From positions 1-36,398 of the forward strand of contig CAYWRT010000005.1 in NCBI GenBank assembly GCA_964460815.1: DNA of 36,398 nt. Reading direction: 5' to 3'. The notes under the pieces were generated by a model that had not been told where the DNA came from, did no database searches, and saw only the letters and a list, made by a program, of their open reading frames with translations. The position numbers were made by a program, and so were the translations under genes. Shown in pieces: positions 1,902 through 25,335 of the stretch (position 1 is its first letter; every line of letters begins with the position of its first letter). This DNA is from an uncultured Dehalococcoidaceae bacterium (GTDB lineage Bacteria > Chloroflexota > Dehalococcoidia > Dehalococcoidales > RBG-16-60-22).

Positions 1902-2291
1902 TTATCTCTTCTGCCGCAGGGCACGAGTGACAGCCTTCTTCAGGCCAGCCGCACTCAGAGGCTTGAGCAGGTAGTCGGCGGCCCCTAGGGCGAGGGCATG
2001 TGTTTGCTGCGATTCCCCGAAGGCAGCGGTAAATACAATTACCGGAATTACCGGGATTTCCGGGTCATTCTTTATCTCTTCCAGTATCACCCAGCCGTTA
2101 TTATCCGGCAGTATCAAGTCCAGCAGCACCAGATTGACCTTATTTCTTCTCGCCAGTATCAGGCCTTCATGACCGGTCTCGGCCTTAAGACAATCATATC
2201 CCTCCAGTTCAAGCACCCGGCAGGCGAAGTTTCGGGTGTCGGCATCATCATCTATAATGAGAACCGTGTCATCCTTGGGCTTTTTGGCCAT
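1902..2291 (-). CDS. Single-domain CheY-like response regulator (REC only)
   Basis: Canonical receiver residues are present: LIIDDDAD acidic pocket, phospho-acceptor Asp in LVLLDLILPD, Thr in VIVFTA, Lys in YLLKP. The ORF-track start at 2300 is GTG. ATG 2291 has AGGTGA 5 nt upstream and is preferred. It overlaps the 3' end of the upstream kinase gene (stop 2269), suggesting translational coupling. Confidence 0.85.
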   Translation of the reverse strand: MAKKPKDDTVLIIDDDADTRNFACRVLELEGYDCLKAETGHEGLILARRNKVNLVLLDLILPDNNGWVILEEIKNDPEIPVIPVIVFTAAFGESQQTHALALGAADYLLKPLSAAGLKKAVTRALRQKR

Positions 2292-5200
2292 AGCTATCAC
2301 CTGACCTGGTATATATCGGCAGGGTGAAGGAGCAACTGGTTCCCTTCCCTTCTTCGCTTTTTATCCAGATTCTGCCGCCGTGTGCCTCTATCAGCCCTTT
2401 GCAGATGGACAGCCCCAGCCCGGCTCCCCCTTCTCCCGGTAATAGCCCTGGCCGGGAGCGAAACATGCGCTCAAATACCCGTGGCAGGTCCTTTTCAGGG
2501 ATGCCTATCCCCTGGTCGGTGACGCTGACCAGTAGCTCCTGCCCGGAGCGACGAACGACTAATGTCACTTCTGTAAACGCTTCTGAGTACTTGACGGCAT
2601 TGCTGATGAGGTTATCCAGAACCTGCCGGATACGTGTGGCATCAATGTTTACCCTGGGCAATCTCTCCGGCAGGTCCAGTGTGATATGGTGGGCGGGTGA
2701 CCTTACCTGGGCCTCGGCTACGGCCTCCCGACACAGCCTGTTAATGGTGGTGGGTGCCTTGTCTATCGTCAGTGTGCCGGCGCCTAACTGGGACATGTCC
2801 AGCAACTGTCTTATGAGCTCTGCCAGCCGGTCGGCGTTCTTGTCAATAGTCTTCAGGTATTCCTGTTTCTCATCACGCTTCAGTCGCCGGTCATAGTCCA
2901 GTAGCATGGTGGCAAAGCCCTTGATACTTGCCAGTGGTGTGCGCAGTTCGTGGGAGATATTGGCCAGCAGTTCAGTTCGCAGCTTGTCAAGCTCTCTAAG
3001 GGTCGCCGCCTCACGCGCCTGTTCCTCAGCCCGTCTGCGCTCGGTGATGTCCCTGACAAAAACCGAGAGGCCATCCACAGAGGGATAGGCGCTGATTTCA
3101 AAAAGCAATTTCTTGTCCCGGATTTGGTATTCGGTGACCAAGTGCTGTGGCTGCCTGGTTCTCAGTGCCTTCAGGTACGTTCTTTCCGCCTTTCTGGTCA
3201 TTTCTGCGTCCGAGAAAATTTCATAGAGGTGTTTTCCCAGAGCGTCTCTGGCGGAAACTCCGGTCAGTTCTTCGCTGGCCTTATTCCAGTAGGTATATCT
3301 CAGGTCTTTATCAAAGGCAAAGAAGACGTCCGAGATGCTTTCGGCCAGGTTCCTGTATTTCTCCTCAGACCGCTTGCGCTCGGTAATATCACGAATAAAT
3401 ACAAACAGTTGCCCTTTCTCTACATTAAGGCAATTTACACTAACCTCAACATTAATTATCTTCCCGTCTTTACGTTTATGTCGACTCTCAAAACGGTCAT
3501 AACCTTCGTTAACCACTTTTTCAATATGTCGAGCAGTTTCCTCAGGACTTTCAATGGCTTCTATGTCTTTTATGGCCATCTTGAGTAGTTCTTCTCGTGT
3601 ATAGCCTATCATCTGACAATATGAATCGTTGACTTCAAGAAATTTACCCTCTAGATTGCAGAGCCAGAAACCATCCAGGGCTGTTGTTAAGATTGCCTGA
3701 TTTCTCTCTTCCATTTTCTTGCGCTCGGTAATGTCGGTTGCCACGGATATCATGCAGGGCTCACCATCAATGTTGATTGGCTCGGCTGAAAAAAGTGATG
3801 TGTATATCTCACCTGACTTAGTTCGTAATTCCACTTCCTCGTTATAAACTCGTCCCTGTTCTTTCATCTTTTTTACAATTCTGGCGCGATGCTCTGGCTT
3901 TATCCAGGAACGGAGCTCGCTTGTAGTATGACCGATTACCTCTTCACGGGTGTAGCCGGTAAAACGGGTGTAGCTGTCGTTTACTTCAATGAATCTGCCA
4001 TCTTTAATTGTGGTGATAGCGATTCTATCAGGGCTGGAACGAAAGGCTTTGGAGAACTTCTCCTCGCTCTCCTGTAGTGCCTCCTCCGCCTGCTTGCGCT
4101 CGGTGATGTCAACCCAGTTTGCCAGGTAGTATTTAATTGTCCCTTCGTGTATTACCGGTGTCATTTTTATCTCGGCCCAGAAATGTTCCCCGTTCTTTTT
4201 CCGGTTGATTAACTCTCTTTTTGCAGGGCTACTTCTCTTACCTTGCATCAAGCTGGTGAGTCTATCTTCCTTTATTTCCTCCGGCCACCAGGGGTATGGA
4301 GGTTTTATGCCGGCAATTTCCGACAGAGTAAAACCGGTCAGCTTTTCAAACGCCGGATTCGCATATTTTATTGAAGTATCTGGATTAGCCACGACGATTG
4401 GATTTGGCGAGTTCTCCAGCAGGCTGGTGCTGAACTCCTCACTTTCGGCTAAAGCCTCCTCAGACCGCTTGCGCTCGGTGATGTCATACAATGAAATCAG
4501 GCCGGCTAATCTACCCTGATATTCGATTCTCGCACCGACGGCTCTTATCCAGATTTTTCTGCCGTCTCTGGTTATTACCCGGAATTCGTTTACCTGACGC
4601 ATGTCTCTGGTAAACATGTCTTCGGTAATAATCTTAATAGCCCGGTCTCTATCGTCCGGGGGAATAAATTCAAGCGGGTTCGTTCCAATGGCGTCCTCGG
4701 CGGAATCAAATCCAAATAAATTAGCGGCGGCTTCATTGCCAAGCACTACCTTCATCGTTTCGGCATCAATGACAAATACGCCATCTAGTGTGCCTTCGAA
4801 TAAGGCCCTGTATCTCTGTTCGCTCTCCCGCAGTTTCTCCTCAGACCGCTTGCGCTCGGTGATGTCCCTAATAACAGTGACCGAACTAATATGTCTGCCT
4901 TGCTCATCTTTGAGTGTTGCCAACGCATGTTCGGAGGGGAAGATTGTGCCGTCCTTACGTCGCATCCTGTATTCAAACAAATGTAGAGAGCCAGATTGGT
5001 CAATGGTTGCCTTGTAGATGTGCTGTCGGAACTCTAGATTTGCTTGCCCGCCAATATGCAAGAAGCTCGTGGTGTGTCCTAGCATTTCTTGACGGGTGTA
5101 GCCGAATATTTGCGTTGCGGCTGGGTTGCATTCAAGTATCGTCGGCGGCTTCCCCGTATCCAAGACGAAGATGGCAGACCGCTGGCTGGCAAAGGTCTTT

Positions 5201-6108
5201 TCGAACAGTTCTTTGGACTCACGCAGCTTTTCCTCGGCCCGCTTGCGCTCGGTGATGTCAGTTGCCGCGCCTATAAATTTTGATGGCTTACCTGTTTTTT
5301 CATCCCGAATCACTATGATTCTGTCCAGCCAGGTCATGTATGTCCCATCTTTTTTTCTCATACGGTACTCTATGGTATATGGTACACCTGGTTCTAGCTG
5401 GTCTATACTTAGACTATCTATCCGGGCAAGGTCTTCCGGGTGGACATGTCCCCGCCAGCCTTCCATAGTACGGGGATAGCCACCAGGCTCATAGCCTAAA
5501 TGGCTGTCTATATCTCCATAAAATGTAGCCATGCCGGTTTGCAGGTCTCTCTCATAGACGACATCACTGGCAATCTGGCTGGCAACACGGAATCTTTTTT
5601 CACTATCTCTTAGCGCTTCCTCCGCCCGCTTGCGCTCGGTGATGTCATCCCCAATTATCTGGATGCCGACCGGCATATTATGTTTTTTGAGCACCCTGCC
5701 TCTTATTTGCAGCCAAATCCATTCCCCGTCCTTACGCTTGTACTGTATCTCCAAAATTCCGGGGGGTTGTCCCATCAGCTTTTTCTTCATCCGCTCTCTC
5801 AAGACCTTTATCGTTTCATTGGAAATTAGGCCAAGACTGAACGCATTCTTCCCAACCAACTCCCCCCATGAATAACCGGTAGCTTGCAGGATGGTTTTAT
5901 TAACATAGGTGATTTTGCCGGTGAGGTCCACGTTCATTATGCCAATGATAGCGTCTTCAACCAGCGTTCTGTATTTCTCTTCACTCTCCTTCAGTGCCTC
6001 TTCTGCATATTTGCTCTCGGCTTTTGATGCTTCAAGTCCAGCAAGCTGCTGGCGCGCCTCCATTAACTCAGCCATAAGATGTTTTTTAGTTTTACCTGAG
6101 TCATTCAT
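2269..6108 (-). CDS. Soluble multi-PAS sensor histidine kinase (8 PAS + HisKA + HATPase_c)
   Basis: Eight PAS units each end in DITERK(R/K/Q)xEE. The H-box is [12 protein letters not shown]. The ATPase boxes are DNLISNAVKYS, DQGIGIP and GGAGLGLSI. No hydrophobic TM segment is present. The ORF-track start at 6117 is GTG; ATG 6108 has AAGGGG 8 nt upstream. Confidence 0.9.
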   Translation of the reverse strand: MNDSGKTKKHLMAELMEARQQLAGLEASKAESKYAEEALKESEEKYRTLVEDAIIGIMNVDLTGKITYVNKTILQATGYSWGELVGKNAFSLGLISNETIKVLRERMKKKLMGQPPGILEIQYKRKDGEWIWLQIRGRVLKKHNMPVGIQIIGDDITERKRAEEALRDSEKRFRVASQIASDVVYERDLQTGMATFYGDIDSHLGYEPGGYPRTMEGWRGHVHPEDLARIDSLSIDQLEPGVPYTIEYRMRKKDGTYMTWLDRIIVIRDEKTGKPSKFIGAATDITERKRAEEKLRESKELFEKTFASQRSAIFVLDTGKPPTILECNPAATQIFGYTRQEMLGHTTSFLHIGGQANLEFRQHIYKATIDQSGSLHLFEYRMRRKDGTIFPSEHALATLKDEQGRHISSVTVIRDITERKRSEEKLRESEQRYRALFEGTLDGVFVIDAETMKVVLGNEAAANLFGFDSAEDAIGTNPLEFIPPDDRDRAIKIITEDMFTRDMRQVNEFRVITRDGRKIWIRAVGARIEYQGRLAGLISLYDITERKRSEEALAESEEFSTSLLENSPNPIVVANPDTSIKYANPAFEKLTGFTLSEIAGIKPPYPWWPEEIKEDRLTSLMQGKRSSPAKRELINRKKNGEHFWAEIKMTPVIHEGTIKYYLANWVDITERKQAEEALQESEEKFSKAFRSSPDRIAITTIKDGRFIEVNDSYTRFTGYTREEVIGHTTSELRSWIKPEHRARIVKKMKEQGRVYNEEVELRTKSGEIYTSLFSAEPINIDGEPCMISVATDITERKKMEERNQAILTTALDGFWLCNLEGKFLEVNDSYCQMIGYTREELLKMAIKDIEAIESPEETARHIEKVVNEGYDRFESRHKRKDGKIINVEVSVNCLNVEKGQLFVFIRDITERKRSEEKYRNLAESISDVFFAFDKDLRYTYWNKASEELTGVSARDALGKHLYEIFSDAEMTRKAERTYLKALRTRQPQHLVTEYQIRDKKLLFEISAYPSVDGLSVFVRDITERRRAEEQAREAATLRELDKLRTELLANISHELRTPLASIKGFATMLLDYDRRLKRDEKQEYLKTIDKNADRLAELIRQLLDMSQLGAGTLTIDKAPTTINRLCREAVAEAQVRSPAHHITLDLPERLPRVNIDATRIRQVLDNLISNAVKYSEAFTEVTLVVRRSGQELLVSVTDQGIGIPEKDLPRVFERMFRSRPGLLPGEGGAGLGLSICKGLIEAHGGRIWIKSEEGKGTSCSFTLPIYTRSGDSYGQKAQG

Positions 6109-6163
6109 CCCCGTCACCCCTTGAATCAGACCGGGTGCGCTTTTTATCTTATTTTATATGCTT

Positions 6164-6793: not shown

Positions 6794-7039
6794 TTAGTTC
6801 TGCGAATTTCTGGGCGGCGCTATCTTCCATATGGGAGCAATAACTGCCCCGCCTTTTATGCAGATGGAGCCTCTGACACATCCTGCTTTGCTTGAGGAGT
6901 GGATGTTGCCCGGGGTCGGCATGTCCTTTAGCGGAGCCAATCTGCCTTCGTCACTGCGGTGCGTCTGGCGGAACATTCTCATATGTTCGAGATGCTGCTT
7001 GAAGGATTTCGCATCATTCCATACCAGTGCCATTACCAT
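6794..7039 (-). CDS. Hypothetical small protein (81 aa), first gene of the kinase operon
   Basis: ATG 7039 is preceded by GAGGT (7-nt spacer) and a promoter-like element. It ends 37 nt before the REC-only gene. No family was recognised from the sequence MVMALVWNDAKSFKQHLEHMRMF.... Confidence 0.4.
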   Translation of the reverse strand: MVMALVWNDAKSFKQHLEHMRMFRQTHRSDEGRLAPLKDMPTPGNIHSSSKAGCVRGSICIKGGAVIAPIWKIAPPRNSQN

Positions 7040-7062: not shown

Positions 7063-7092
7063 ATTACTTAAGTGGCCTCACAAAAGTGTCAA
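7063..7092 (-). promoter_or_regulatory. Sigma70-like promoter for the 81-aa ORF / kinase operon
   Basis: On the minus strand: TTGACA (7092-7087), 18 nt, AGTAAT (7068-7063), about 20 nt upstream of the RBS and ATG at 7039. Confidence 0.35.
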
Positions 7093-7230
7093 AAAGGGGT
7101 TTCGAAGACTCACAAAAAAGTCACGGTTAGCCATTGTGTATATTATCGTCTTCAGTTTTGCCAGTTTCTGGGAAAAATCAGAAGTGGGCACCGAGATTGT
7201 TTAGCCACCTGTCCCCTGAATCCTTCCTTT

Positions 7231-7615
7231 GTTATCTATTCCCACCCAGGCCGCCCAGCATCATCTGTGGCTTATCCCGTGAGTTTGTACCTCCCCTCGT
7301 TGTTATCTATTCCCACCCTGCCACCCTCGTATCACCCACGGCTTAACCCGAGAATATTCCCCACCTTTTCCCCTTCAGAGAAGAAAGAAAAGAGGGGCTG
7401 GCGCCCCTCTACACAAGCTACTCCCCCTGGGGTGGGGAGGGTAAAACTACAACCTATGTCTGGACTGTACACTGCGGGATAAGCAGAAAATGATGCGTGG
7501 GTGGCTTGGGTGGGAAAAGATAAGAAAGAAAAAGTTAATAACCCCTGGGGTGGGGAGGTACAAACTTACGGGATAAGCCGCCGATGACACTGGGCGGCAG
7601 GGTGGGAAAGGATTA
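7231..7615. repeat. Palindromic cluster A of a C-rich ~65-95-nt repeat family (2 forward + 2 inverted copies)
   Basis: A1 is 7231-7296 and A2 is 7301-7365 (C-rich orientation). A3 is 7429-7523 and A4 is 7547-7615 (inverted). The shared boxes are TTCCCACCC...GCC(G/A)CCC...GGCTTATCCCG...CCTCCCC(ACCCC). A1 versus the reverse complement of A4 shows 6 substitutions and one 1-nt indel over the ~57-nt core by hand alignment. Confidence 0.85.
7381..7410 (-). terminator. Intrinsic-terminator-like hairpin at the dyad centre of cluster A
   Basis: AGAGGGGC-TGGC-GCCCCTCT (7391-7410) forms an 8-bp GC-rich stem with a 4-nt loop. On the minus strand it is followed by TTTCTTTCTT (reverse complement of 7381-7390). 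It lies ~290 nt downstream of the OmpR-type regulator stop at 7700. Confidence 0.4.
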
Positions 7616-7699
7616 CAAACGAGGGGGGCAAACTGAAATCAGAAGGCTCCCCGGGGACTGTTGACTGTCTTCGTGTGATGGACAATGGCTGTTAGGTAA

Positions 7700-8398
7700 T
7701 CACGTTGGCTTTGACATCATGTAGCCTATGCCGGGTCTGGTCAGGATGTAGGTGGGGTTCTTGGCGTCATCTCCCAGCTTATGCCTGAGCCGGGCTATAT
7801 TAACCTGAAGAAGGTGCGGAGCACCGATATATTCCTCGCCCCATACTTTATCCAGCAACTGGTCGGGCGTTACCACCCGGCCCGCGTTGCTCGAAATGTA
7901 AGACAGCAGTCTGTACTCTGTGGAGGTCAGATTTAGCTCCTGATTGCCGAACATGACCCTATGCGAGGCAAAGTCTATGGTCAGGTCTTTATAACGGAAT
8001 ATGGACTGAGGAGGCTTATCTTGGGTTCCAATGCGGCGCAACATTGCCCTGACTCGCGCCGCCAGCTCGCTGGCGGAGAAGGGTTTGGTTACGTAGTCAT
8101 CAGCGCCAATGTTTAGCCCTTCAACCTTCTCTTTATCATCACCCTTGGCGGTAACCATAATTATTGGTACCTGCGAAAACTCTCGGATTTGCTGACACAC
8201 GGTATATCCATCCATACCTGGCATCATGATGTCTAGCAGCACTAAATCTGGAGTTTCCTTCTCGAATATTTTTAGGGACGTTTCGCCGCTGCTGGCTACA
8301 AGTACCTGGAAGCCCTCCAGCTCCAGCACGCGCTTCATCATACGCAGCATCCGGATGTCATCATCAACTATCAAAATCGATGCGCTCTTTGAAGACAT
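7700..8398 (-). CDS. OmpR-family response regulator (REC + winged-helix)
   Basis: REC residues: ILIVDDD, LVLLDIMMPGMDG, IIMVTAKG, DDYVTKPF. The Trans_reg_C domain shows LTSTEYRLLSYISSNAGRVVTPDQLLDKVWGEEY...NIARLRHKL...ILTRPGIGYMM. The ORF extends to ATG 8431, but ATG 8398 has AGAGGTG 5 nt upstream, so it is preferred. Confidence 0.9.
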   Translation of the reverse strand: MSSKSASILIVDDDIRMLRMMKRVLELEGFQVLVASSGETSLKIFEKETPDLVLLDIMMPGMDGYTVCQQIREFSQVPIIMVTAKGDDKEKVEGLNIGADDYVTKPFSASELAARVRAMLRRIGTQDKPPQSIFRYKDLTIDFASHRVMFGNQELNLTSTEYRLLSYISSNAGRVVTPDQLLDKVWGEEYIGAPHLLQVNIARLRHKLGDDAKNPTYILTRPGIGYMMSKPT

Positions 8399-8470: not shown

Positions 8471-11299
8471 TCATGGTTGAACCCCTTTTATCGCCGTTAT
8501 TATGGGAAGGGTAAAATAGAAGGTACTTCCTTTTCCCATTTCACTCTGTACCCAGATTCGGCCGCCGTGAGCTTCCACCAGCCGCCGGCATATGGATAGC
8601 CCCAGTCCGATACCTTCTACACCCGAGGTCAGCCTTTGCTCGATTCGATACATCCGGTCGAAGATATTGGTGAGCTCATCAGCGGGTATACCCGGGCCTT
8701 TATCGGTAACGCTGATGACCAGCTGTCGCCTGTCTCGCCGGGCTGATATGAGCACTTCCGTTCCCTGGGGGGAATACTTGACGGCGTTATCAATCAGGTT
8801 GTCCAGCACCTGCCGGACGCGCTTGGCATCAATGTTTACCTGGGGCAGGCGTTTATCCAGAATTATAGCTATATGATGCTGGTTAGCCCTGAAACGAGCC
8901 TCAGCCGCCACCTCCTGGATGAGTCTTGAGATGCTGACCGGAGCTTTTTGCAGTTTTAGCAGTCCTGCCTCCATGCGAGACGTGTCCAGGAGGTTATCGA
9001 CAAGTTTGGCAAGCCTGTCTGTTGAATTATCTATGGATTTGAGGTAGTCCTTTTTTTCATCGGAACTGAGCTTGGGAAAATAGTCAAGTATCATGGTGGA
9101 GTACCCTTTTATCGTTGCCAGGGGAGTGCGCAGTTCATGGGAGACCGTGGCCAGGAGGTCGCTCTTGAGTTTGCTCAGTTCCTCGAATTCAATCACCTTT
9201 CTCTCAAGATATTTGCGTTCGGTAATGTCCATGAGGTTTCCCAGGAGGGCTTCTCTACCCTGGTACTGGATGGCGGAGACCGTTTGCATGACCCATTTAA
9301 TCTGTCTGGCTTTGCTGATAATCCGGTATTCGCACGGATAAGCGTGAGCCTCCTTCAGTGTGAATACGGTGCTTGACCTGACCACATCGCTGTCCTCAGG
9401 AGTAACAAGGCTCAGGAGATCCCTGTCTGACAACTCCTTTTGGCTGTAGCCGGTAAGCTTCTGGAACTGCGGGTTAGTGTACTGCAGCTTGTTATCCTGA
9501 AGAATATAGATGCCCAGTGGCGAATTATGGGAAACTGTCTTGAGTAGCTCTTCGGAGCGTTTGCGTTCGGTGATGTCTCTGGTAATGGCGACAAGTCCTA
9601 CGGGATTGCCCGAGGCATCTTTTAGAACGGTGGCATTTATCTCGGCATCAAATTTGCTGCCGTCTTTTCTCAGGAGCTTGTATTCAACATTGCCGCTGAA
9701 CCCGGCTGTCAGCCTCCTTTCAAGGTTTGCTCTGGCTCGGGCACGGTCTCTCGGCACCATCAACTCGAAGCGGTTTCGCCCAATCACGTCTTCCTTGTTC
9801 TCATAGCCGTGCATTTTGAGCATGGCTTCATTTGTCTCCGTAATATTTCCCTTCAGGTCAGTGATGATGATTCCCTCGGTCATTGATTCAAACATGAGGC
9901 GAAGCTTCTCCTCGCTTTCCCTCAGTTCCTCCCCGGCGCGTTTGCGCTCGGTGATGTCGGTTGTCATGGTGATGATACACGGTTCACCGCCAATGTTGAT
10001 TGGCTCGGCTGAGAAAAGCCAGGTGCATATCTCGCCTGACTTGATACGGATGTCAAATTCTTTATTGCTGACTCTGTCCCGTTTCTTCAGTATCTGTCGC
10101 AACGTGTTACGGTCCTTCGCCTTTGTCCACAAACCGAGCTCAAGGGCGCTGTGACCAATGACCTCTCCACGGGTGTAGCCGGTATAACGGGTGAAACTGT
10201 CATTAACTTCAATGAATACGCCGTCCTTGATCCTGTTGATGGAGACTATTTCAGGGCTGGAACGAAAGGCCTTGGAGAACTTTTCCTCCGATTGCTGCAG
10301 GGCATCTTCCACATACCTGTGCTCGGAGATTATTCCCAGCCGCTCCGCCACAGCATCAATGAGCAGTCTTTCCTCTTTTAAGAACGGGCCTTCATCTTTC
10401 TCTGGCCTGGCTTCCAGGTAAACGACCTCGACGGCACCGGCTCTGGCTCCATGTATTATGATGTCCGAAGATTGCTTCCAGTCTGTCTGCCTGTAGTTCT
10501 CTGTCTTGAACTCACTATTGTTAATGGTAATTCGGGCACAGGCAACCTCAGGGTACTGCCAGGCCCGGGGAAGCAGATTGGCTATCTCCTCGAACCGTTT
10601 GTACAGGGTGATATCCGGTGCTCCCGTGATGTTGGCAATATCATAGAGGAACCTGAGTTCTTTGGCACGCTTGGTTAATTCATGCTCCATCATCCGCTGG
10701 TGTTTGGAACTCTCGATGGTGTCCCATTTGCCGGCTCGCCTGATGAGGGCGAACTGGTGGTTACTGACAACGTCTATGATTTCAGGTGCCTGACAATTAT
10801 CAAGTGAATAGGTGCAAATGGCTATCACTTTGTATCTGCCGATGGCCGTATTTGCCTCTTCCTCGTATTTGACGAGGTTTTTCCAGGCTCCTTTGTCCGG
10901 CGAAGTGGCATTACTTATTACCCTCATGCCTTCATAGCCGTTGGCAATGGCTTGATTGAGTTTTTCAATCCAGTGATTAAAAACTCTTGGAGAGTCAAAA
11001 GCGCCGTCCTTAAAATACCATTCAGTGTGCGGGATTATCTCTATCTGTCCTTTTTCCAGGTATCTGTCAAAATCAGGCACGGACTTTCTCATCGCCTCTT
11101 CGGCACGTTTCTGGTCCAGAGTTTCTGAGGTTATCCACATGCAGAATTCCTTGTTCTCTAATCCGGTCCTGAAATAGGGCACCAGGATGTCAATTAAATC
11201 CTCCCTGGTCTGATAGAATTGACAGAGGTGTGTGCCCCAGGGCACATCGCCGATAGCATCAATTCCTGATTTTCTATATCCTTTCTCCACTCTGCTCAC
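8471..11299 (-). CDS. Sensor histidine kinase with N-terminal MEDS domain, GAF-like region, 3 PAS, HisKA, HATPase_c
   Basis: The N-terminus [36 protein letters not shown]...MRVISN...YEEEAN...ICTYSL fits the MEDS (DcmR-type sensory) pattern. There are three DITERK-terminated PAS units. The H-box is [12 protein letters not shown], with [18 protein letters not shown] and GIGLGLSI. There is no TM segment. The start is GTG, and there is no ATG before residue 54. Confidence 0.9.
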
Positions 11300-11969: not shown

Positions 11970-12186
11970 TCGGGTATCTCAGATTTACTTTTACCGATTT
12001 CCTGAAGTTTCATTGCGTTGTTCACGTGGTTAACTTAATTGATGGATGTTATGACCTTAATCTAGTAAAGTTAGCTCACAGCCGAATCACAAAGTAGGAG
12101 TGAAACTTCACAGTAATATCACACTTCGGTGCTAAGCCTGAGTTCTTATGGCTGGAGGGGAGTGTAGGAGGGGGGCGAAGGCTATT

Positions 12187-12464
12187 TTATCTTTTCCCAC
12201 CCTGCCGCCCTCGCAGCATCCAAGGCTATCTCGTTCTTCTCTACCCCGCCACCCCACATTTTTCATATCTGTTCCCACCCTAGCCGCCCTCGCAGCATCT
12301 GCGGCTTATCCTGTAGTTTTCTCCCCACCACCCCCGGAATAAGTGGTGACCAGTACGGGATTGCACTATCTCCAATCTCTCCCCAATACTCCAAGGGGGA
12401 AAAGGGGGGATATTCACGGGATAAGCCAATGATGGTACGAGGGTGGCAGGGTGGGATTAGATTA
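12187..12464. repeat. Cluster B of the same repeat family (2 forward + 1 inverted copy)
   Basis: B1 is 12187-12255 and B2 is 12265-12335 (C-rich orientation). B3 is 12404-12464 (inverted). The reverse complement of B3 shares a 21-nt identical run, TCCCACCCTGCCACCCTCGTA, with A2 of cluster A. Confidence 0.85.
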
Positions 12465-12550
12465 GAGACGAGGGAGGTTAAGGGGGGGAAGGCTAAAATA
12501 CCGAGACAACCAAAAACGAACGGAACCATCTGAAGAATTTTTAGTACAAG

Positions 12551-13177
12551 CTACCTGTGCAAAAAGGGGTTATTCCTGCGCTCAGCACCAATGCTGGTCT
12601 CTCGGCCATGCCCGGGATACACGGCAGTATCATCAGGTAATACCATCAATCTGGTATGGATGCTGTCTATCAGCTGGCGGCGACTGCTTCCGGGCATCAG
12701 GGTAGTACCGATACCGCGATAAAAAAGTGTATCTCCGGTAAATACTTTGCTGTCGGTGAAAAGACAGATGCTGCCGGGGGTGTGCCCCGGTGTATGCAAT
12801 ACCGAAAAGTTCAGGTCGCCAACATCTATAGTATCACCTTCATTGAGCAATCTGTCTGGCGTGAGAGGGGTCTTGTAGGAAATGCCAAACATCGTGCTGA
12901 AAGACCCACTGCCACGTAGAAACTGGGCGTCAGCCGTGTGAATAGCTACTTCAGCCCCGGTCCTGACCTGGATATCGTATAGGGCAGCAATATGGTCGGA
13001 ATGACCGTGGGTCAGCACGATAATCTTGATATCAAGTCCCGAATTACTGATGACCTGGAAAATATCTTGAGCATTACCACCGGGGTCAATCACCAGCCCT
13101 TCTCTTGAATTCTCTGAGCCGACGATATAACAGTTGGCTGATAGTGACCCCACCACCAATCTCTTGATAATCATCAT
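12551..13177 (-). CDS. MBL-fold metallo-hydrolase (glyoxalase II-like)
   Basis: 208 aa with the metal motif THGHSDH, later HTPGHTPGS, a TGDTLF Asp, and a C-terminal PGHG. Confidence 0.9.
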   Translation of the reverse strand: MMIIKRLVVGSLSANCYIVGSENSREGLVIDPGGNAQDIFQVISNSGLDIKIIVLTHGHSDHIAALYDIQVRTGAEVAIHTADAQFLRGSGSFSTMFGISYKTPLTPDRLLNEGDTIDVGDLNFSVLHTPGHTPGSICLFTDSKVFTGDTLFYRGIGTTLMPGSSRRQLIDSIHTRLMVLPDDTAVYPGHGRETSIGAERRNNPFLHR

Positions 13178-14561: not shown

Positions 14562-14694
14562 CCTTATAGCTTAGAATGTAGTATATCCGTATACAGGTGA
14601 AAAGCAGATTAGCCTTTATTTCTTTTGGGGGTCTACTCCCATTCTGTTTTTGGAAACGGGGGTAGCCTTCAGTAAAAATAGGTTTTTTCTTTTA

Positions 14695-14703
14695 TGCTAT
14701 AAT
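14695..14703 (+). promoter_or_regulatory. Extended -10 promoter (TGCTATAAT) for MFS copy 1
   Basis: TGCTATAAT lies inside a ~65-nt block (14681-14748). That block is repeated almost verbatim upstream of MFS copy 3 (17350-17415). Confidence 0.45.
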
Positions 14704-14745
14704 GGGTTGGCTCTGATAATAGAAGCTGCTGAGAAATGGTTTATC

Positions 14746-16005
14746 GTGGAAAATAAGGAAGTCAGCCCGCCCCGCCGGAATGAACCACGGTTTTTTTACG
14801 GCTATATCGTGGTTATAGCTGCCTTCTTGATACTGGTTATCACGTTCGGCCCACATTCTGCGTTTGGTCTATTCTTAAATCCGTTGCTGGATGAGTTTGG
14901 CTGGACCAGAGCCATGACCTCGGGTGCCTTCTCACTGTCCATGTTTATCTATGGCTTAATGAGCATTATCTCAGGAGGACTAACTGACAGGTTCGGTCCC
15001 AGGGTGGTAGTGTCACTCTGTGGCCTGTGTATCGGGGTGGGGTTTATGCTGATGTCGCAGGTCAATTCTCTCTGGCAGCTGTACCTGTTCTTCGGGGTAA
15101 TAGCCGGTATCGGCATGAGTGCCGTTTGGGTCCCGCAGATGTCCTCAGTCGCCAGGTGGTTTGTTAAAAGAAGGAGCCTGATGACGGGCATTATTATAGC
15201 CGGCGCGGGCATAAGTCAATTGATTGCACCGCCGGTGATTAGTCGGCTTATTGCTGCTTTTGATTGGCGTCTCACCTATGTCATAATGGGGGGCGCCATT
15301 TTGGTAGTTATCGTTTTAGCGGCTCAGTTTCTGCGGCGCGACCCGGCTCAAATGGGACTGCTGCCCTATGGCATGAATGAAGGGTTACAACCAGAGTTGA
15401 AATCAGGGACTGAGGACTTCTCCTTCAAGGAGGCCGTTAATACGGCACAGTTCTGGGAAGTTTTCACTATGTTGTTCTGCTCCGGGTTTGGCTTTATGGG
15501 TCTTATGGTGCATATTGTGCCCCATGCCATTGAACTGGGAGTCTCAGCCGTCAGTGCCGCCAATATTTTAGCGGTTATGGGCGGGGTAGGTATCATCGGT
15601 AATTATGTCCTGGGGGGCATGGCTGACAGAATTGGCAACAGGCGAGTTTTTATTATTGGTTTTATTCTGATGGCGGCAGCTTTGTTCGGTCTGATGCCGG
15701 CCAGAGAGTTGTGGGCGCTTTACCTCTTTGCCGTTGTCTTTGGCTTCGCTTTTGGAGGTGTTGGCACCGTAGAGTCGCCTCTGGTAGCCGGGCTTTTTGG
15801 CTTGAGTTCCCATGGTTTGATTTACGGGGTTGTTCACGTCGGCTTTACCGTGGGAGCTGCTGCCGGTCCGTTTTTGACCGGTTATATATTTGATGTCAAT
15901 GGCAGCTATCAAATGGCTTTCTTAGTTGCGGCTGTTGTCGGCATTGTCGGTGTCATAATGTCATCAATATTAAGACCAACCAGAAGGATGGTTAGCAGGC
16001 TCTAG
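14746..16005 (+). CDS. MFS transporter, oxalate/formate antiporter (OFA)-like, paralog 1
   Basis: 12-TM MFS pattern with the loop 2-3 motif GGLTDRFGPR. GTG 14746 is homologous to the only possible start of paralog 2 and gives 419 aa, against 420 and 420 for the other copies. The ORF-track start at 14650 (TTG) lies upstream of the -10 box. Confidence 0.9.
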   Translation: MENKEVSPPRRNEPRFFYGYIVVIAAFLILVITFGPHSAFGLFLNPLLDEFGWTRAMTSGAFSLSMFIYGLMSIISGGLTDRFGPRVVVSLCGLCIGVGFMLMSQVNSLWQLYLFFGVIAGIGMSAVWVPQMSSVARWFVKRRSLMTGIIIAGAGISQLIAPPVISRLIAAFDWRLTYVIMGGAILVVIVLAAQFLRRDPAQMGLLPYGMNEGLQPELKSGTEDFSFKEAVNTAQFWEVFTMLFCSGFGFMGLMVHIVPHAIELGVSAVSAANILAVMGGVGIIGNYVLGGMADRIGNRRVFIIGFILMAAALFGLMPARELWALYLFAVVFGFAFGGVGTVESPLVAGLFGLSSHGLIYGVVHVGFTVGAAAGPFLTGYIFDVNGSYQMAFLVAAVVGIVGVIMSSILRPTRRMVSRL

Positions 16006-16058
16006 CTTTCTCGATAAAAGTATGTCGAGGGATGTAAATACCTTAGAACTGATTTATC

Positions 16059-17321
16059 GTGGTAAATAAGAAAGCTCGCCCGCCCCGCAAGACTGAATCA
16101 CGGTTTTTCTTCGGCTATGTCGTGGTTATAGCCAGCTTCTTTATTATGGTGATATCGTGGGGCCTGTATAGCACCTTCGGTGTTTTCCTCAAGCCGCTGC
16201 TCGACGAGTTTGGCTGGACTACCGCCATGACCTCAGGCGCCTTCTCGCTGTCCGTGATTGTAAATGGCGTGCTGGGTATTGTCATGGGGGGACTTACTGA
16301 CAGGTTCGGGCCCAGGGTAGTAGTGTCACTCTGTGGCTTGTGTATCGGTGTGGGGTTTATGCTGATGTCACAGGTCAATGCTCCCTGGCAGCTATATCTG
16401 TTCTACGGCGTGATAATAGGTATTGGTATGGGTGGTGTTTGGGTGCCGCTACTGTCATCTGTCGCCAGGTGGTTTGTCGGGAGAAGGAGCCTGATGACGG
16501 GCATTGTTATATCTGGCTTGTCCGCAGGCCAGTTGGTGGGGCCACCAGTGGCCAGTCGTCTTATTGCTGCTTATGATTGGCGTCTATCCTTTACCATACT
16601 GGGCGGCGTGGTTTTAGTATTTATGGTTCTGGCTGCCCAGTTCCTGAGGCGTGACCCGGCCCGGATGGGGCAACTGCCCTACGGTGAAAATGAAGAGGAG
16701 CCACGGGGGTTGGAATCCGGGACTAACGACTTTTCCTTCAGGGAGGCAGTTAATACGGCACAATTCTGGGTATTTTTAATCATGCTCTTCTGCTTCGGGT
16801 TTGCTGCGTTCTCTATCACGGTACATATTGTGCCGCATGCCATCGAGCTGGAAATTCCAGCCATCAGTGCCGCCAACATTTTAGCCATTCTTGGCGGGGT
16901 AGGTATTCTGGGCAATTCCCTGCTGGGTGGCATCACTGGTGACCGAATCGGTAACAGGAAGGCTTTTATTATCGGCTGTGTTCTGATGGTGGTATCTTTG
17001 TTCTGGCTGTTGCCGGCTAAAGAGGTGTGGATGTTTTACCTCTTTGCTGTTGCCTTTGGCTTTGCTCTTGGGGGTATGGGCACCTCAGAATCGCCTCTGG
17101 TAGCCAGGCTCTTCGGGCTGAGCTCCCATGGTTTGATTCTGGCGTTTATTGGTCTTGGCTTTACCAGTGGTGCTGCTATCGGTCCGGTGGTGACCGGCTA
17201 TATCTTTGACTTAAATGGCAGTTATCAGGTGGCTTTTCTGGTCTGTGCTGTCTTAAGCGTTGCCGGTCTCATACTGGCGGCCATGCTGAGACCAACCAGA
17301 AGGCTGGGTGGCAGAATTTAG
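16059..17321 (+). CDS. MFS transporter, OFA-like, paralog 2
   Basis: 420 aa with a GTG start in the conserved context ATCGTGGTAAATAAGAAAGC. It is highly similar to paralogs 1 and 3. Confidence 0.9.
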   Translation: MVNKKARPPRKTESRFFFGYVVVIASFFIMVISWGLYSTFGVFLKPLLDEFGWTTAMTSGAFSLSVIVNGVLGIVMGGLTDRFGPRVVVSLCGLCIGVGFMLMSQVNAPWQLYLFYGVIIGIGMGGVWVPLLSSVARWFVGRRSLMTGIVISGLSAGQLVGPPVASRLIAAYDWRLSFTILGGVVLVFMVLAAQFLRRDPARMGQLPYGENEEEPRGLESGTNDFSFREAVNTAQFWVFLIMLFCFGFAAFSITVHIVPHAIELEIPAISAANILAILGGVGILGNSLLGGITGDRIGNRKAFIIGCVLMVVSLFWLLPAKEVWMFYLFAVAFGFALGGMGTSESPLVARLFGLSSHGLILAFIGLGFTSGAAIGPVVTGYIFDLNGSYQVAFLVCAVLSVAGLILAAMLRPTRRLGGRI

Positions 17322-17361
17322 CTTTCTCAATTAGGAGGCACCATCCCTTCGTTTTCTTTTA

Positions 17362-17370
17362 TGCTATAAT
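17362..17370 (+). promoter_or_regulatory. Extended -10 promoter (TGCTATAAT) for MFS copy 3
   Basis: Same TTTTCTTTTATGCTATAATGG block as upstream of copy 1. ATG 17374 lies only 4 nt after the -10 box, so it is unlikely to be the translated start. Confidence 0.45.
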
Positions 17371-17412
17371 GGCATGGCACTGATAGCAGACGCTACTGAG
17401 AACTGGTTTATC

Positions 17413-18675
17413 GTGGTAAATAAGAAAGCTCACCCGCCCCGCAAGACTGAATCACGGTTTTTCTATGGCTACATCGTGGTCATAGTTGCCTTTTTCGTCA
17501 TGGCCGTCTCGTTTGCTGTGTTTAATACCTTTGGTGTCTTCTTCAAGCCTCTGCTGGACGAGTTTGGCTGGACCAGTGCCGTGACCTCGGGTGCCTTCTC
17601 ACTGTCCATGATTATATACGGCGTGCTGGGTATTGTCATGGGGGGACTTAATGACCGGTTTGGTCCCAGGGTGGTATTGACGCTCTGTAGCTTGATTATA
17701 GGTCTGGGATATTTGTTGATGTCACGTGTCAGCGCTCTCTGGCAATTTTACCTGTTCTACGGAGTGATGATAGGTGTTGGCATGAGTGGCGTTTGGGTAC
17801 CACTGTTGTCATCGGTCGCCAGGTGGTTTGTCCGGCGAAGGAATCTGATGACGGGCATTGTTATCGCTGGTACGGGCCTAGGTTCATTTATTGGGCCACC
17901 GGTGATTAACTGGCTCATTGCTACTTATGAATGGCGTCCAGCCTTCATCATACTGGGCGGCACCGTTTTAGTATTTTTGGTTCTGGCGGCTCAGTTCCTG
18001 AGGCGTGACCCTACCCAGAAGGGGCAGTTGCCCTATGGCGAGGCTGAAGGGAAACAAGAGGGAGCAGCAGCTGAGGCCAGCGACTTTTCACTGAGGGAGG
18101 CAGTTCCTACCCCGCAATTCTGGCTGACTTTCATAATGTTCTTCTGCTACGGCTTCGGTCTGTTCTCTATGATAGTGCATATTGTACGTCATGCCATTGA
18201 GCTGGAAATATCAGCGGCAACTGCCGCCAACATTTTGGCTGTTAGTGGCGGAGCCGGTGTTATTGGCAATTATGTGCTGGGTGGCATCATTGGTGAACGA
18301 ATCGGCAACAGGCAGGTTTTTATTATTGGCGGTATTCTGATGTCGGCAACCCTGTTCTGGCTGGTGTGGGCCGGAGAGGCATGGATGCTTTACCTCTTTA
18401 CTATTGTCTTTGGCTTCGCTCTCGGGGGTTTGGGTGCCGGTGAGTCGCCTCTGGTAGCCAGGCTTTTTGGGCTGAGCTCCCATGGTTTGATTTACGGCGT
18501 GGTTCACCTTGGTTTTACCATTGGCGCTGCTGTCGGTCCGGTGGTGACCGGTTACATCTTTGACTTAAACGGTGAATATCAGATGGCTTTCCTCCTTTGT
18601 GCCGCTTTAAGCGTTGCCGGTGTCATACTGGCGGCCATGCTGACACCAACCAGAAGGCGGGGTGGCAGTATCTAG
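17413..18675 (+). CDS. MFS transporter, OFA-like, paralog 3
   Basis: 420 aa from GTG 17413, in the same ATCGTGGTAAATAAGAAAGC context as paralog 2. The ORF is open from ATG 17374. Confidence 0.9.
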   Translation: MVNKKAHPPRKTESRFFYGYIVVIVAFFVMAVSFAVFNTFGVFFKPLLDEFGWTSAVTSGAFSLSMIIYGVLGIVMGGLNDRFGPRVVLTLCSLIIGLGYLLMSRVSALWQFYLFYGVMIGVGMSGVWVPLLSSVARWFVRRRNLMTGIVIAGTGLGSFIGPPVINWLIATYEWRPAFIILGGTVLVFLVLAAQFLRRDPTQKGQLPYGEAEGKQEGAAAEASDFSLREAVPTPQFWLTFIMFFCYGFGLFSMIVHIVRHAIELEISAATAANILAVSGGAGVIGNYVLGGIIGERIGNRQVFIIGGILMSATLFWLVWAGEAWMLYLFTIVFGFALGGLGAGESPLVARLFGLSSHGLIYGVVHLGFTIGAAVGPVVTGYIFDLNGEYQMAFLLCAALSVAGVILAAMLTPTRRRGGSI

Positions 18676-23100: not shown

Positions 23101-24558
23101 ATGTTGGGAAGTGACTATCAGAAGTTTGCTAAGGACGTCATCACTATCGGCGTTTGTCAACTTCTGGTAGCTTTAAGTGGAATTCTCCTGCTACCTCTGA
23201 TTACGAAGACACTTGGGGCTCACGACTATGGAATCTGGTCACAGGTTCAGGTCACTATAGGCCTGGTTTTTGGTTTTGCGGGGCTTGGGTTGCCTTTTGC
23301 CATGACCAGGTTCCTGGCGGCTAAGACAAGCCGAGAAGAGATACAGGAGGAGTTCTATTCAGTATTTTCCCTGGTATTTCTCTCCACCCTCATTGTCTCA
23401 ATTATCCTGATGGCGCTGGCCGATTTCTTTGCCGGGGCTTTTTTTGAGGGTGCCACAGACATAGTTAGAATAACCGGGCTTATTATTCTGGTACATTCAT
23501 TAAACTGGGTATACCTTAACTTTTTCAGGACCTTTCGGCAGATGAAAAAATATTCCATTTTTATGATTGCCGATAACTATGGGCAGATTGGCCTGATTGC
23601 CTACCTGGCTTTATCGGGATACGGGCTCTTCAGTGTCGTTCTGGCTGTTCTGGCGATAAGGGTGGCCATCTTTTTTTTCCTGTTCTTTTTCATAAATTCG
23701 CAGATTCGTATTAGAAGCCCCCGCTTCTCAAGGATAAGGGAGTATCTGGCTTTTAGCTTGCCCACCATACCCGGGCTTATCTCAGCCTGGTTTGTCGGCT
23801 CCAGTGACAGGTATGTTATTGGCTATTTCCTCGGAGCGGCATCTATAGGGGTTTACTCGGCAGGCTATACTCTGGGGAGTGCCGCTTTTATTATGGTACG
23901 CATATTTAGTTTTGTCCTGCCTCCCACCTTATCCAGGCTTTATGACGAAGGCAGAATTGACGAAGTAAAAACCCATTTAAGCTATTCATTAAAATTTTTG
24001 CTGCTGATAATAATACCTTTTATCTTTGGTGCGGTTGTCCTTTCCAAGCAAGTATTGCTGCTCTTTTCTACTCCTCAGGTGGTTACACAAGGCTACTATG
24101 TTGTTCCACTGGTGGCACTGGCTATTTTACTGCTATGTTTTTGTGAGCCGTTTGGAGCGGTTCTCACATTGGTGAAGAAAACAAAGATATCCGGCATAGC
24201 CTATACACTGGCGGCTCTGGTCAACCTCGGACTCAATATATTACTTGTCCCTATCTGGGGTATCCTGGCGGCCGCCATCACTACCATAATTGCCTATTCT
24301 CTCTTGCTGGGTATAAACGTTTACTATTCCCGTAAGGAATTTAGTTTCGATATGAACTGGCGCTTCATCGCCAAGAGCCTGATTGCCTCCCTGGCCATGT
24401 CCCTGGTTATCTGGTGGCTCGGCCCGGAAGGCAGTGTGGCGACAGTGGTCACGGTGGTAATCGGTGTTGTTGTGTATGGAGTAATCCTGTTCCTGTTAAG
24501 GGGCTTCAGCCGGGGGGAATTTAGATTTTTCAGGGGTCTGTTTCAGAGCAGTTCCTAG
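23101..24558 (+). CDS. wzx: Polysaccharide/oligosaccharide flippase (Wzx, MOP superfamily)
   Basis: 485 aa with ~12-14 TM helices. The overall pattern, N-terminal region (...VITIGVCQLLVALSGILLLPLITKTLG..DYGIW) and cluster context are typical of Wzx-type polysaccharide-biosynthesis proteins. Confidence 0.85.
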   Translation: MLGSDYQKFAKDVITIGVCQLLVALSGILLLPLITKTLGAHDYGIWSQVQVTIGLVFGFAGLGLPFAMTRFLAAKTSREEIQEEFYSVFSLVFLSTLIVSIILMALADFFAGAFFEGATDIVRITGLIILVHSLNWVYLNFFRTFRQMKKYSIFMIADNYGQIGLIAYLALSGYGLFSVVLAVLAIRVAIFFFLFFFINSQIRIRSPRFSRIREYLAFSLPTIPGLISAWFVGSSDRYVIGYFLGAASIGVYSAGYTLGSAAFIMVRIFSFVLPPTLSRLYDEGRIDEVKTHLSYSLKFLLLIIIPFIFGAVVLSKQVLLLFSTPQVVTQGYYVVPLVALAILLLCFCEPFGAVLTLVKKTKISGIAYTLAALVNLGLNILLVPIWGILAAAITTIIAYSLLLGINVYYSRKEFSFDMNWRFIAKSLIASLAMSLVIWWLGPEGSVATVVTVVIGVVVYGVILFLLRGFSRGEFRFFRGLFQSSS

Positions 24559-25287
24559 GTAGGTCGGGGTCTTTCGGTTTGCCATCACGGTACCTCCCTG
24601 GCCGGACCTGATGATGGAGAGGCTATTATCGCCCTCGTTCAGGAGCAAGTCCAGGGCCGAGAGATAAGGTACAAAATCTCCAAAGAGCTGGCGGTACCGG
24701 GGATGGTGATATTCATGGTAACATAGCTCGATGCCATTATCGGCAAATAAATCGTTTTCCTCGATATACCCCCTGGACCCGGGGGGTGAGAGATAGCGCT
24801 CCGCCCCGACCGACTTGCAGATAGCGACCAGAAGCTCGACCTTGTTCCCCTGTATGCCCAGCGAGGAACTGCGTATCAACTCGGTTTTTATGCCGATGGC
24901 CTCTCTGAGCCAGTCAATCAGCTCGATGGTGAGCTCGGCCAGATAGCCGTGTCTCTTCTCCAGGATGGCCGCCAGGCCACCCAGATACCTGCTGAAGAAT
25001 GGCGCTTTGCTGTAGTTATACTGAATAGTCTTGATGTGCTTATCTCCGAAATCGCTGTCTGGCTGGATTTCTACTTCGCATATTTTCTGGGTACGACGCT
25101 GTTTGGTCAGTACCGGCACGGTCAGCAGCAACTCCCCGGAAGGGCTTTTTATCCGGTTCCGCTGCTGCCAGGAACGTTTGTCAAATTGCACGGAATCCAG
25201 AAATACGAAAATATCGCTTTGAGCCATCAGGTCAAAATACCCCAGCCAGGGCAGGTAGGTCGGTTGCATGATTGCAATTGTTTTCAC
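24496..25287 (-). CDS. wbqC: WbqC-family protein
   Basis: The N-terminus (V)KTIAIMQPTYLPWLGYFDLM...FVFLDSVQFDKRSWQQRNRI is the WbqC signature. The ORF-track start at 25335 is TTG and abuts the upstream stop. GTG 25287 or ATG 25269 are more likely starts. The 3' end overlaps wzx convergently by 63 nt. Confidence 0.8.
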   Translation of the reverse strand: MKTIAIMQPTYLPWLGYFDLMAQSDIFVFLDSVQFDKRSWQQRNRIKSPSGELLLTVPVLTKQRRTQKICEVEIQPDSDFGDKHIKTIQYNYSKAPFFSRYLGGLAAILEKRHGYLAELTIELIDWLREAIGIKTELIRSSSLGIQGNKVELLVAICKSVGAERYLSPPGSRGYIEENDLFADNGIELCYHEYHHPRYRQLFGDFVPYLSALDLLLNEGDNSLSIIRSGQGGTVMANRKTPTYLGTALKQTPEKSKFPPAEAP

Positions 25288-25335
25288 GCTTACTCTCAAA
25301 TTATCCTGGTTTGGGGTTGATATAAATAATGCCAA

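Follow-up and report, generated by a model that had tools for sequence, protein, structure and literature searches.

We describe here a repeat element in a 36,398-nt stretch of DNA (the window) from an uncultured member of the Dehalococcoidales. In the 660-nt gap downstream of an OmpR-type regulator gene, positions 7224-7624 of the window hold four C-rich units of ~70-95 nt, two direct and two inverted, arranged tail-to-tail around a terminator-like hairpin. It was found that the unit belongs to a previously undescribed, lineage-specific repeat which is dispersed in uncultured Dehalococcoidales. The family occurs in polar mosaics, with hairpins resembling repetitive extragenic palindromes (REP) mostly on the head side of the unit and terminator-type modules on its tail side. 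On balance we think it likely that the array is a local cluster of a new, non-autonomous and non-palindromic extragenic mosaic repeat, which in its behaviour is similar to the bacterial interspersed mosaic elements (BIME) and the BOX elements.

The repeat family and its unit

The first-pass annotation, made from the letters of the window alone, had recognised seven units; four of these constitute the array and the other three form a second cluster at 12184-12471. A 20-position pattern was derived from the seven units and scanned against GTDB contigs, with one genome per species. This pattern-based scan, in which the hosts are all short-read metagenome-assembled genomes (MAGs), where repeats break or collapse assemblies, matched more than 107 stretches at the least. 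All but two of the matches listed came from MAGs assigned to Dehalococcoidales, 'Dehalococcoidaceae' or Chloroflexota, from sediments and cold seeps. A profile was then made from the pattern matches, and with it at least 178 copies (E < 1e-3), with at least 25 in the richest genome, were found in 736 kb from 24 Dehalococcoidales MAG species. A profile search for further genomic copies had been proposed with the annotation, and the copies are indeed there. In the window itself, the core motif occurs 8 times against 0.45 expected, and none of 100 shuffles contained as many.

The repeat had also been called unrecognised, and this view is upheld. There were zero matches to the unit family in IMG/VR viral contigs and in plasmid or phage collections, and no description of the family was found in full-text literature searches on Dehalococcoidia repeats, on RAYT/REP in Chloroflexi and on Dehalococcoides small RNAs (sRNAs). 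In Rfam 15, no match at the gathering score was obtained in the window or in 20 related loci, except for tRNA, RNase P and T-box elsewhere, and the best E-values within the array region were only 0.56-6.6. A known RNA family was ruled out by this lack of an Rfam match.

Read along the C-rich strand, the unit consists of a C-run head, TCG, TTGTTATCT[A/T]TTCCCACCC, 1-3 variable nt, GCC[G/A]CCC and (T)CG, followed by 3 variable nt, CATC, 3-4 variable nt, GGCTTA[T/G]CCCG(TAG), a T-rich stretch and a C-run tail. The element is ~95 nt in all, and the C-run head of each unit is a correction to the earlier description. Its composition is 40% C and 16% G, with ~19.5 YC dinucleotides per 69 nt. Conserved blocks at specific positions alternate with hypervariable positions, and two blocks containing TTATC[TC] lie ~43 nt apart. 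This conservation is no mere effect of the search pattern, since TTATCT, CATC and the CCC after GCTTA are conserved though they lie outside the pattern, and the 24 copies found by the profile alone carry the same conserved blocks.

The unit has no detectable structure of its own. RNAalifold gave no consensus structure for the unit alignment on either strand, the pairing-probability profiles across units were flat, and mutual information in the alignment consisted of nearest-neighbour effects only, with no long-range signal. The sole candidate stem (GCCGC...GCGGC) is without covariation: beyond two G-C pairs, its positions pair in 71%, 71%, 47% and 14% of the copies, and where G is changed to A the partner remains C in 27 of the 33 variants, leaving an A:C mismatch. 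A true REP palindrome is ruled out, since the unit lacks a palindrome by each of these measures. No inverted repeat was found inside the units of the kind that forms the terminal inverted repeats of miniature inverted-repeat transposable elements (MITEs), and no target-site duplication was found either, the match between head and tail flanks being 5.75 nt compared with 5.65 +/- 0.10 nt after permutation. A promoter-like signal upstream of the units is absent, with an information content of ~0 beyond -25 and upstream of the C-run head. After the core, CCCGTAG is the consensus, in which the GTAG positions are variable (entropy ~0.8-1.4 bits) and have no stem-loop to tag. Indels of 1-2 nt occur at two places in the unit and exclude a coding function. 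A coding or MIRU-like mini open reading frame (ORF) is ruled out by these indels together with the absence of the region at orthologous loci, and the array is non-coding as it had been described.

A number of other candidates were rejected. A CsrA-type sponge with GGA hairpins on the G-rich strand was prompted by CUUACGGGAUAAG in unit A4 of the array, and the hairpin is not conserved among the copies. A G-quadruplex is not a conserved property, the canonical motif being present in 7 of 144 units and in neither A3 nor A4. An internal sigma-70 promoter, or a 5'-leader role of the G-rich strand, was dismissed for want of a positional signal and of an orientation bias. Likeness to an IHF site and to a DnaA box was seen by eye only and given no weight, as key consensus positions are variable or missing. 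Pairing with tRNA 3' ends in the manner of a T-box, suggested by AGGGTGG and by a likeness to tRNA-Ser in L005 (related loci carry numbers with the prefix L), was rejected as well: there was no T-box match at the units, and a real T-box was found in L011 elsewhere.

Two further observations concern individual copies. The adjacency of units to tRNA genes has no consistent orientation, and units directly 3' of a tRNA gene on the same strand are present in L005 at 3763-3922 (Ser), in L039 at 4144-4312 (Glu) and in L088 at 1872-2076 (Gly). In L005, the tRNA 3' end (..CCCACCCTCTCCGCCA) serves as the C-run head and resembles the unit block TTCCCACCCTGCCGCCC at 15 of 19 positions. In addition, units in L015 (~5162-5261), L042 (~4353-4420) and L076 (~1047-1184) contain a hairpin insertion of ~35-40 nt (e.g. 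GCCTGCGCTAAGGCTTCGGCGGGTAAACC), which is located between CCCACCC and the TCG..CATC block and splits the profile match in two.

Clusters, placement and turnover of the units

All four copies of the array are at the positions at which they had been noted, and repeat detection and profile matches agree. The profile built from relatives matches all four, with E-values of 1e-13 to 1e-17. Unit A1 (7224-7294, plus strand, E = 6.9e-17) has the core TTGTTATCTATTCCCACCC..GCCGCCC..CATC..GGCTTATCCCG, then the C-run tail, with the plus strand C-rich and a C-rich head flank at ~7214-7229; it takes part in direct repeat D1 and inverted repeat I1. Unit A2 (7295-7365, plus strand, E = 1.1e-15) is the other copy of D1. 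It abuts A1 head-to-tail with zero gap, so that the C-run of the A1 tail plus TCG doubles as the A2 head, and the two units align over 54 nt with 76% identity and a period of 71 nt. The remaining two units have the minus strand as their C-rich strand. Unit A3 (7424-7531; profile match 7529-7463, E = 3.9e-13; repeats D2, D4, D5, I2, I3 and I6) carries an insertion, given as ~30 nt before and here seen as ~25-30 nt, that separates the core (7463-7529) from the C-run tail (7424-7440). Unit A4 (7542-7632; profile match 7624-7554, E = 3.8e-15) pairs with A1 through I1, the inverted arms being 83% complementary over 58 nt; A2:A3 and cross-pairs were detected too. The head C-run of A4, GCCCCCCTCG, is the complement of ~7620-7629, and the unit starts 68 nt past the stop codon of the OmpR-type regulator gene (7700-8398, minus strand). 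With units that are 0-31 nt apart, 75% identical and in some cases inverted, the array is not CRISPR-like, which agrees with the annotation.

Between the two pairs, a terminator module at 7381-7424 on the minus strand was located by a terminator scan and a motif scan of the window. Along that strand it consists of a lead similar to module M1 (see below), GGAGTAGCTTGTGTA, at 7424-7410, a hairpin at 7410-7391 and a T-tract at 7390-7381. The hairpin had been noted as an 8-bp GC hairpin at the dyad centre with a T-tract on the minus strand, and the terminator scan agrees: the consensus is matched on the minus strand only, with 8 pairs of which 6 are G-C, a loop of 4 and the tail TTTCTTTCTT. From this sequence scan an intrinsic terminator is predicted ~290 nt past the regulator stop codon. 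The module is of the M1/M2 type, and it is co-oriented with A3/A4 and with the upstream regulator gene.

The nested long-range pairing predicted for the array (A1:A4 and A2:A3) forms in silico on both strands. Folding of 7215-7635 gave -232 and -235 kcal/mol for the two strands, compared with ~-143 kcal/mol for shuffles (z ~-14). Given the inverted copies, such pairing follows automatically. The 390-nt RNA hairpin that had been proposed on the same grounds is unsupported on the gene strand, since transcription of the minus strand would run into the central terminator ahead of the second half.

The second cluster (12184-12471) consists of two direct units and one inverted unit. B1 (core 12184-12228, plus strand), with a 3' half that is partly degenerate, is direct with B2 (12260-12329, plus strand), and B3 (12403-12471, minus strand) is inverted and tail-to-tail with B2. 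B3 lies 80 nt downstream of a metallo-beta-lactamase-fold gene (12551-13177, minus strand).

The statistics of positions and neighbours rest on 172 copies, and the genes in relatives are crude longest-ORF calls. By these calls, 149 of the 172 copies (~87%) are intergenic. The gaps holding copies are tandem in 59%, divergent in 21% and convergent in 20% of cases, and from the share of divergent gaps, which have two promoters, it follows that promoter gaps are not avoided. The gene on the 5' side has the same orientation as the unit 64 times and the opposite one 62 times. Placement in 3' untranslated regions, to which the array had been likened, is therefore not a general rule, with all three gap types occupied. 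The gene on the head side is the nearer one, at a median of 74 nt after its stop codon or 94 nt before its start, compared with medians of 116-203 nt on the tail side. The palindromic four-copy layout is not borne out as the functional form either: 130 of the 172 copies are solitary, with no neighbour within 400 nt, and inverted pairs are present at 6 sites only. Among the 24 close neighbour pairs, 18 are head-to-tail, 6 are tail-to-tail and none is head-to-head (6 versus 0, binomial p = 0.03, from few sites), and the distant unit pairs are direct in 24, divergent in 10 and convergent in 8 cases. The 390-nt dyad, or 'cruciform', is a by-product of tail-to-tail clustering, and the '2 + 2' layout in the window is two unit pairs with one hairpin module in common.

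The polarity of the mosaics is seen in the modules that accompany the units. A hairpin with a T-run was counted at 37 sites on the tail side, compared with 17 on the head side. M1 (GGAGTGCGnAGCGAG) is downstream of the unit and on the same strand in 16 of its 17 occurrences in other genomes. For M2 (GCGTYTAAGAGGGG..CCCCTCTTT), this is the case in 20 of the 21 occurrences within 150 nt of a unit; the total is 35, the other 14 being far from any unit. The REP-like hairpins M5/M6 (GTCATTCCCGCGAAAGCGGGAATCCAG and GTCATTGCGAG...GCAATC) are mostly upstream, on the head side. Where units are combined with the terminators M1/M2, the upstream gene is co-oriented in 16 cases and opposed in 14. The REP/BIME-like genomic logic that the first-pass annotation had ascribed to the array stands, as the family has many copies per genome which are extragenic and mixed with hairpin modules in a fixed order.

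Other repeats share these gaps. The co-resident REP-like hairpin has the two stem variants given above, which are interchanged at the same site in L028/L033. Further repeat families are found in the same gaps, with examples in L016, L023, L028, L033, L035, L036, L040, L047, L051, L057, L078 and L080, and they include a double hairpin CCCCCTTTGAAAAAGGGGGAnTAAGGGGGATTT and a GAGAGGGCAGGGTGAGG module. No Rfam match was found for any of the co-resident families.

For turnover, orthologous comparisons were made with relatives that are ~70-90% identical. The metagenome contigs L110 and L111 have the same gene order as the window locus, namely a MEDS/PAS kinase, the OmpR-type regulator (81% and 78% identical), a small ORF and a CheY-like regulator (52% identical). 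Their gap is without any unit, and its length is ~209 nt in L110 and ~132 nt in L111 compared with 660 nt in the window. Judged from these two relatives, the array is accessory at this locus. Among GTDB loci, orthologous gaps differ by presence versus absence in 3 of 5 informative comparisons and by copy number in 1. For example, L076 and L078 (~87% identical overall) have different unit numbers and different hairpin modules in the same gap. In the pairs L036/L051 and L065/L072, unit identity is only 67-71%, compared with 100% in the flanks over 28-90 nt, with the differences in such close pairs falling at the variable positions of the family. Since the units diverge more than the flanks, this fits replacement by array contraction or by exchange between copies.

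Metagenome contigs of the same locus also differ in the array itself. Contig L001 (JGI 3300031257), which comes from the same population, is the same as the window except for one single-nucleotide polymorphism and a clean 71-nt deletion of one unit (A1/A2), and contig L002 (SRR9710702) stops inside A2. It follows that the count of four is either polymorphic or assembly-dependent; the L001 difference reflects a 3-unit allele of the population or else a tandem repeat that collapsed during assembly. For the family as a whole, copies have a mean identity of 75% when taken from one genome and of 73% when taken from different genomes, with a within-genome 99th percentile of 88%. A recent burst is ruled out by these within-genome identities.

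Genes around the array

The gap is bounded by the regulator gene (Pfam Response_reg and Trans_reg_C) and by an ORF at 6794-7039 on the minus strand. Records of the regulator protein exist for two short metagenome contigs only, and its recorded start is 11 codons downstream of the one listed for the ORF. Within the gap, the array lies between the regulator stop codon and a promoter-proximal block at ~7070-7135, CGTGACnTTTTTGTGAG ... TTTTTGACACTTTTGTGAG, that is conserved among the window, L110 and L111. This block contains two direct repeats TGAC(N)TTTTTGTGAG ~32 nt apart (7070-7135 of the window, minus strand; 8250-8320 of L110; 1790-1850 of L111). The second repeat overlaps a TTGACA-like hexamer, and the pair is upstream of the operon of the small ORF and the CheY-like regulator in all three loci. 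The block looks like a promoter with operator sites, perhaps for the adjacent OmpR-type regulator.

The ORF at 6794-7039 has 81 codons and no Pfam match. Conserved counterparts are present in L110 (41% identity, E = 4e-15) and in L111; the ORF begins with M(M)LVWND.KSF and is always found between the genes of the OmpR-type and CheY-like regulators, and it probably encodes a real small protein of the two-component locus. Upstream of the regulator, a histidine kinase (8471-11299, minus strand) carries a MEDS domain at its N terminus (E = 3e-46) and PAS domains after it, while about seven PAS domains are present in the kinase on the downstream side (2269-6117). Regulation of the neighbouring two-component systems does not run through the array; close relatives are without it. 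A 136-codon ORF with a GTG start (7072-7482, plus strand) spans the hairpin as well as A1 and A2. Pfam gave no match for it, and the orthologous loci are without this region. The frame is open only because the C-rich strand is without stop codons, and the ORF is almost certainly not a gene.

Elsewhere in the window, three consecutive paralogous MFS transporter genes (451, 420 and 433 aa) occupy 14650-18675 on the plus strand, and a related pair is present in L034 and L099. Two NeuB-family genes (27680-28681 and 33265-34338, minus strand) are accompanied by WbqC-like, aminotransferase, methyltransferase and flippase genes (24496-25335, 29768-31072). This cluster is one for nonulosonic-acid or glycan biosynthesis and is unrelated to the repeat.

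Explanations of the array and what they imply

The REP/BIME elements of Enterobacteria and Pseudomonas have been reviewed in PMC3733652. The present family is similar to them in being short and extragenic with many copies per genome, in forming singletons, head-to-tail or tail-to-tail dimers and larger clusters, in being often beside gene ends and terminators and in varying in copy number between relatives. As in BIME, the unit is combined with other conserved short motifs (M1, M2, M5/M6) in a defined order. Unlike REP, the unit is no stem-loop, is two to three times longer and has a strong C/G asymmetry; GTAG forms no more than a weak consensus after the core, the units could not be linked to a RAYT-type transposase, and divergent promoter gaps are not avoided. 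The family works like BIME but is not a member of it, because the unit is not a REP.

The BOX elements of Streptococcus pneumoniae are modular intergenic repeats of the form boxA-boxB(n)-boxC, in which the middle module is present in variable tandem number and no protein is encoded, and they are predicted to fold as a whole into stable structures. Our family is likewise modular, with about a hundred dispersed copies, no encoded protein and a middle module in variable tandem number. It differs in that there is no sequence relationship, the phylum is another one, and the unit is unstructured, with separate hairpins as its flanking modules.

If the array is indeed a local cluster of such a mosaic repeat, the gain, loss and replacement of its units would take place in the DNA. 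The mechanism of mobilisation or recombination that we infer would probably take several routes, namely head-to-tail duplication or contraction via common sequence blocks, exchange between copies, and insertion beside C-runs and G+C hairpins. As the tail side of the unit abuts hairpin or terminator modules, tail-to-tail pairs would arise in which two units flank one hairpin and thus resemble a long palindrome. In the window, the cluster would have been inserted between the regulator stop codon and the conserved putative promoter/operator block of the next operon, and it would separate the kinase-regulator operon from that promoter. The intrinsic terminator predicted at the centre, which would be a strong one, is the one clearly functional-looking part; transcripts of the kinase-regulator operon would end there, past two C-rich units. 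The host may benefit, for example through termination or insulation.

Several results weigh against the mosaic-repeat reading. No transposase or other mobilising gene was found near the copies or in the window. A RAYT (IS200/IS605-like Y1 transposase) in particular is absent from the window, and the clustering of neighbour proteins gave no recurrent protein or gene family adjoining the units. No near-identical copies within a genome were present among the copies compared, there is no sign of recent amplification, and a purely selfish, currently active element is unsupported. Some copies keep their position across several species, an example being the one upstream of valS in L017, L038 and L045. 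The relatives that differ by presence and absence have ~72% nt identity, at which insertion and deletion are indistinguishable at base resolution. Furthermore, the conserved blocks are common to 24 species, which points to a sequence-specific function or recognition that the mosaic-repeat reading does not name. With the blocks conserved in the absence of recent amplification, there is real scope for a role under selection, the candidates being a directional Rho-type C-rich loading stretch plus hairpin, i.e. an insulator, or a protein-binding scaffold; an sRNA family and a MITE-like dyad are less likely.

As a portable termination or insulation module acting in RNA, the unit would load Rho on its unstructured C-rich strand in a rut-like manner, and the tail-side hairpin would pause or terminate the polymerase. 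Tail-to-tail pairs would stop transcription both ways, and antisense copies would curb pervasive antisense transcription. This agrees with the C-rich, G-poor composition and the YC content of the unit, with the lack of secondary structure in the C-rich strand, with the concentration of hairpins and terminators on the tail side, where M1/M2 are co-oriented with the unit, and with the presence of tail-to-tail pairs and none head-to-head. In both clusters of the window, C-rich units are directly past a stop codon on the strand of the gene, and conservation without recent amplification suggests host selection. However, Rho loading is a matter of composition and not of fixed sequence, and the near-invariant blocks TTATCT.TTCCCACCC and GGCTTA are left unexplained. 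There is no excess of co-orientation with the upstream gene, neither overall nor for the units with terminators (counts above), and the syntenic relatives manage without the cluster. We regard this explanation as unlikely.

The same low credence is given to a scaffold of binding sites for a lineage-specific DNA- or RNA-binding protein, for instance a nucleoid-organising protein or a recombinase, comparable to IHF or gyrase at the BIMEs of E. coli. It would recognise the unit by the conserved blocks. The block-wise, position-specific conservation in 24 species, which includes the copies found by the profile alone, argues for it, together with the spaced pair of TTATC[TC] blocks, the independence of unit orientation from genes and the retention of some copies at orthologous positions. 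Nevertheless, no candidate protein was found, and the units are without the dyad or regular direct-repeat symmetry typical of binding sites. A strong C/G strand asymmetry over ~95 nt is unexpected for a duplex DNA site, and orthologous sites can dispense with the copies.

A family of small regulatory RNAs is improbable. Its members would present C-rich single-stranded seeds, sometimes in tandem, and end at the tail-side hairpin or terminator, as in the CcsR/cuckoo sRNAs of Alphaproteobacteria and the RsaE/RoxS sRNAs of Firmicutes. The units share with these the C-rich motifs, the occasional tandem arrays and, in the window, a terminator after the last copy, and in about one copy in five, a terminator-like module of the same orientation comes after the unstructured core. 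In the known sRNAs, however, CCUCC-type motifs are placed in hairpin loops, there are promoters or a fixed host gene, and copies per genome are few, whereas the units have no loops, no promoter, a random gene context and dozens of copies. No promoter-like signal is found at a fixed distance from the units, and the immediate upstream flank is the C-run. The C-rich motifs are not displayed on stem-loops, covariation is absent, and CCCACCC, the motif with the highest conservation, lacks complementarity to a ribosome-binding site of the GGAGG type. In addition, Rfam has no match, and a T-run terminator is absent from most copies.

That the four-copy dyad itself is functional, as a MITE with two binding-site copies per end or as a cruciform or long RNA hairpin, is very improbable. 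In its favour, the arms are long and inverted with heads outward, the fold stands out on both strands, the second cluster has a similar 2-plus-1 layout, and the family is non-autonomous, intergenic and lineage-restricted as are the MITEs Correia, RUP and ERIC, the 2+2 cluster having long inverted ends in a superficial way; but inverted pairs occur at only 6 of ~150 sites and most units are single, terminal inverted repeats and flanking duplications at the unit ends are absent, neither a parent insertion sequence nor a full-length parent with genes between distant inverted units is apparent (more than half of the distant pairs being direct), the central terminator would truncate the minus-strand RNA, and a spacer of 60-100 nt with ~17-25% arm mismatch is generally known to disfavour cruciform extrusion.

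For annotators, the family accounts for long 'empty' gaps, for spurious C-rich ORFs such as 7072-7482 and for contig breaks in Dehalococcoidales MAGs, and the unit profile is ready for masking such regions. To the extent of the literature searched, extragenic mosaic repeats have so far not been described in this phylum. Few such repeats are listed for bacteria, and the family extends them by a non-palindromic member which is clearly polar with respect to terminator-like hairpins. Conservation in blocks, in the absence of recent amplification, is a hint of use by the host as opposed to purely selfish spreading. As a tentative and rather unlikely extension, the unit may be a new type of portable module under selection, a non-palindromic and strand-asymmetric (C-rich, G-poor) cassette of ~95 nt, the blocks of which are read by a Dehalococcoidales-specific factor (Rho with a partner, or a dedicated protein) and which together with the tail hairpin acts as a directional transcription insulator. 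If this is true, clusters like the one in the window would be bidirectional insulators between operons.

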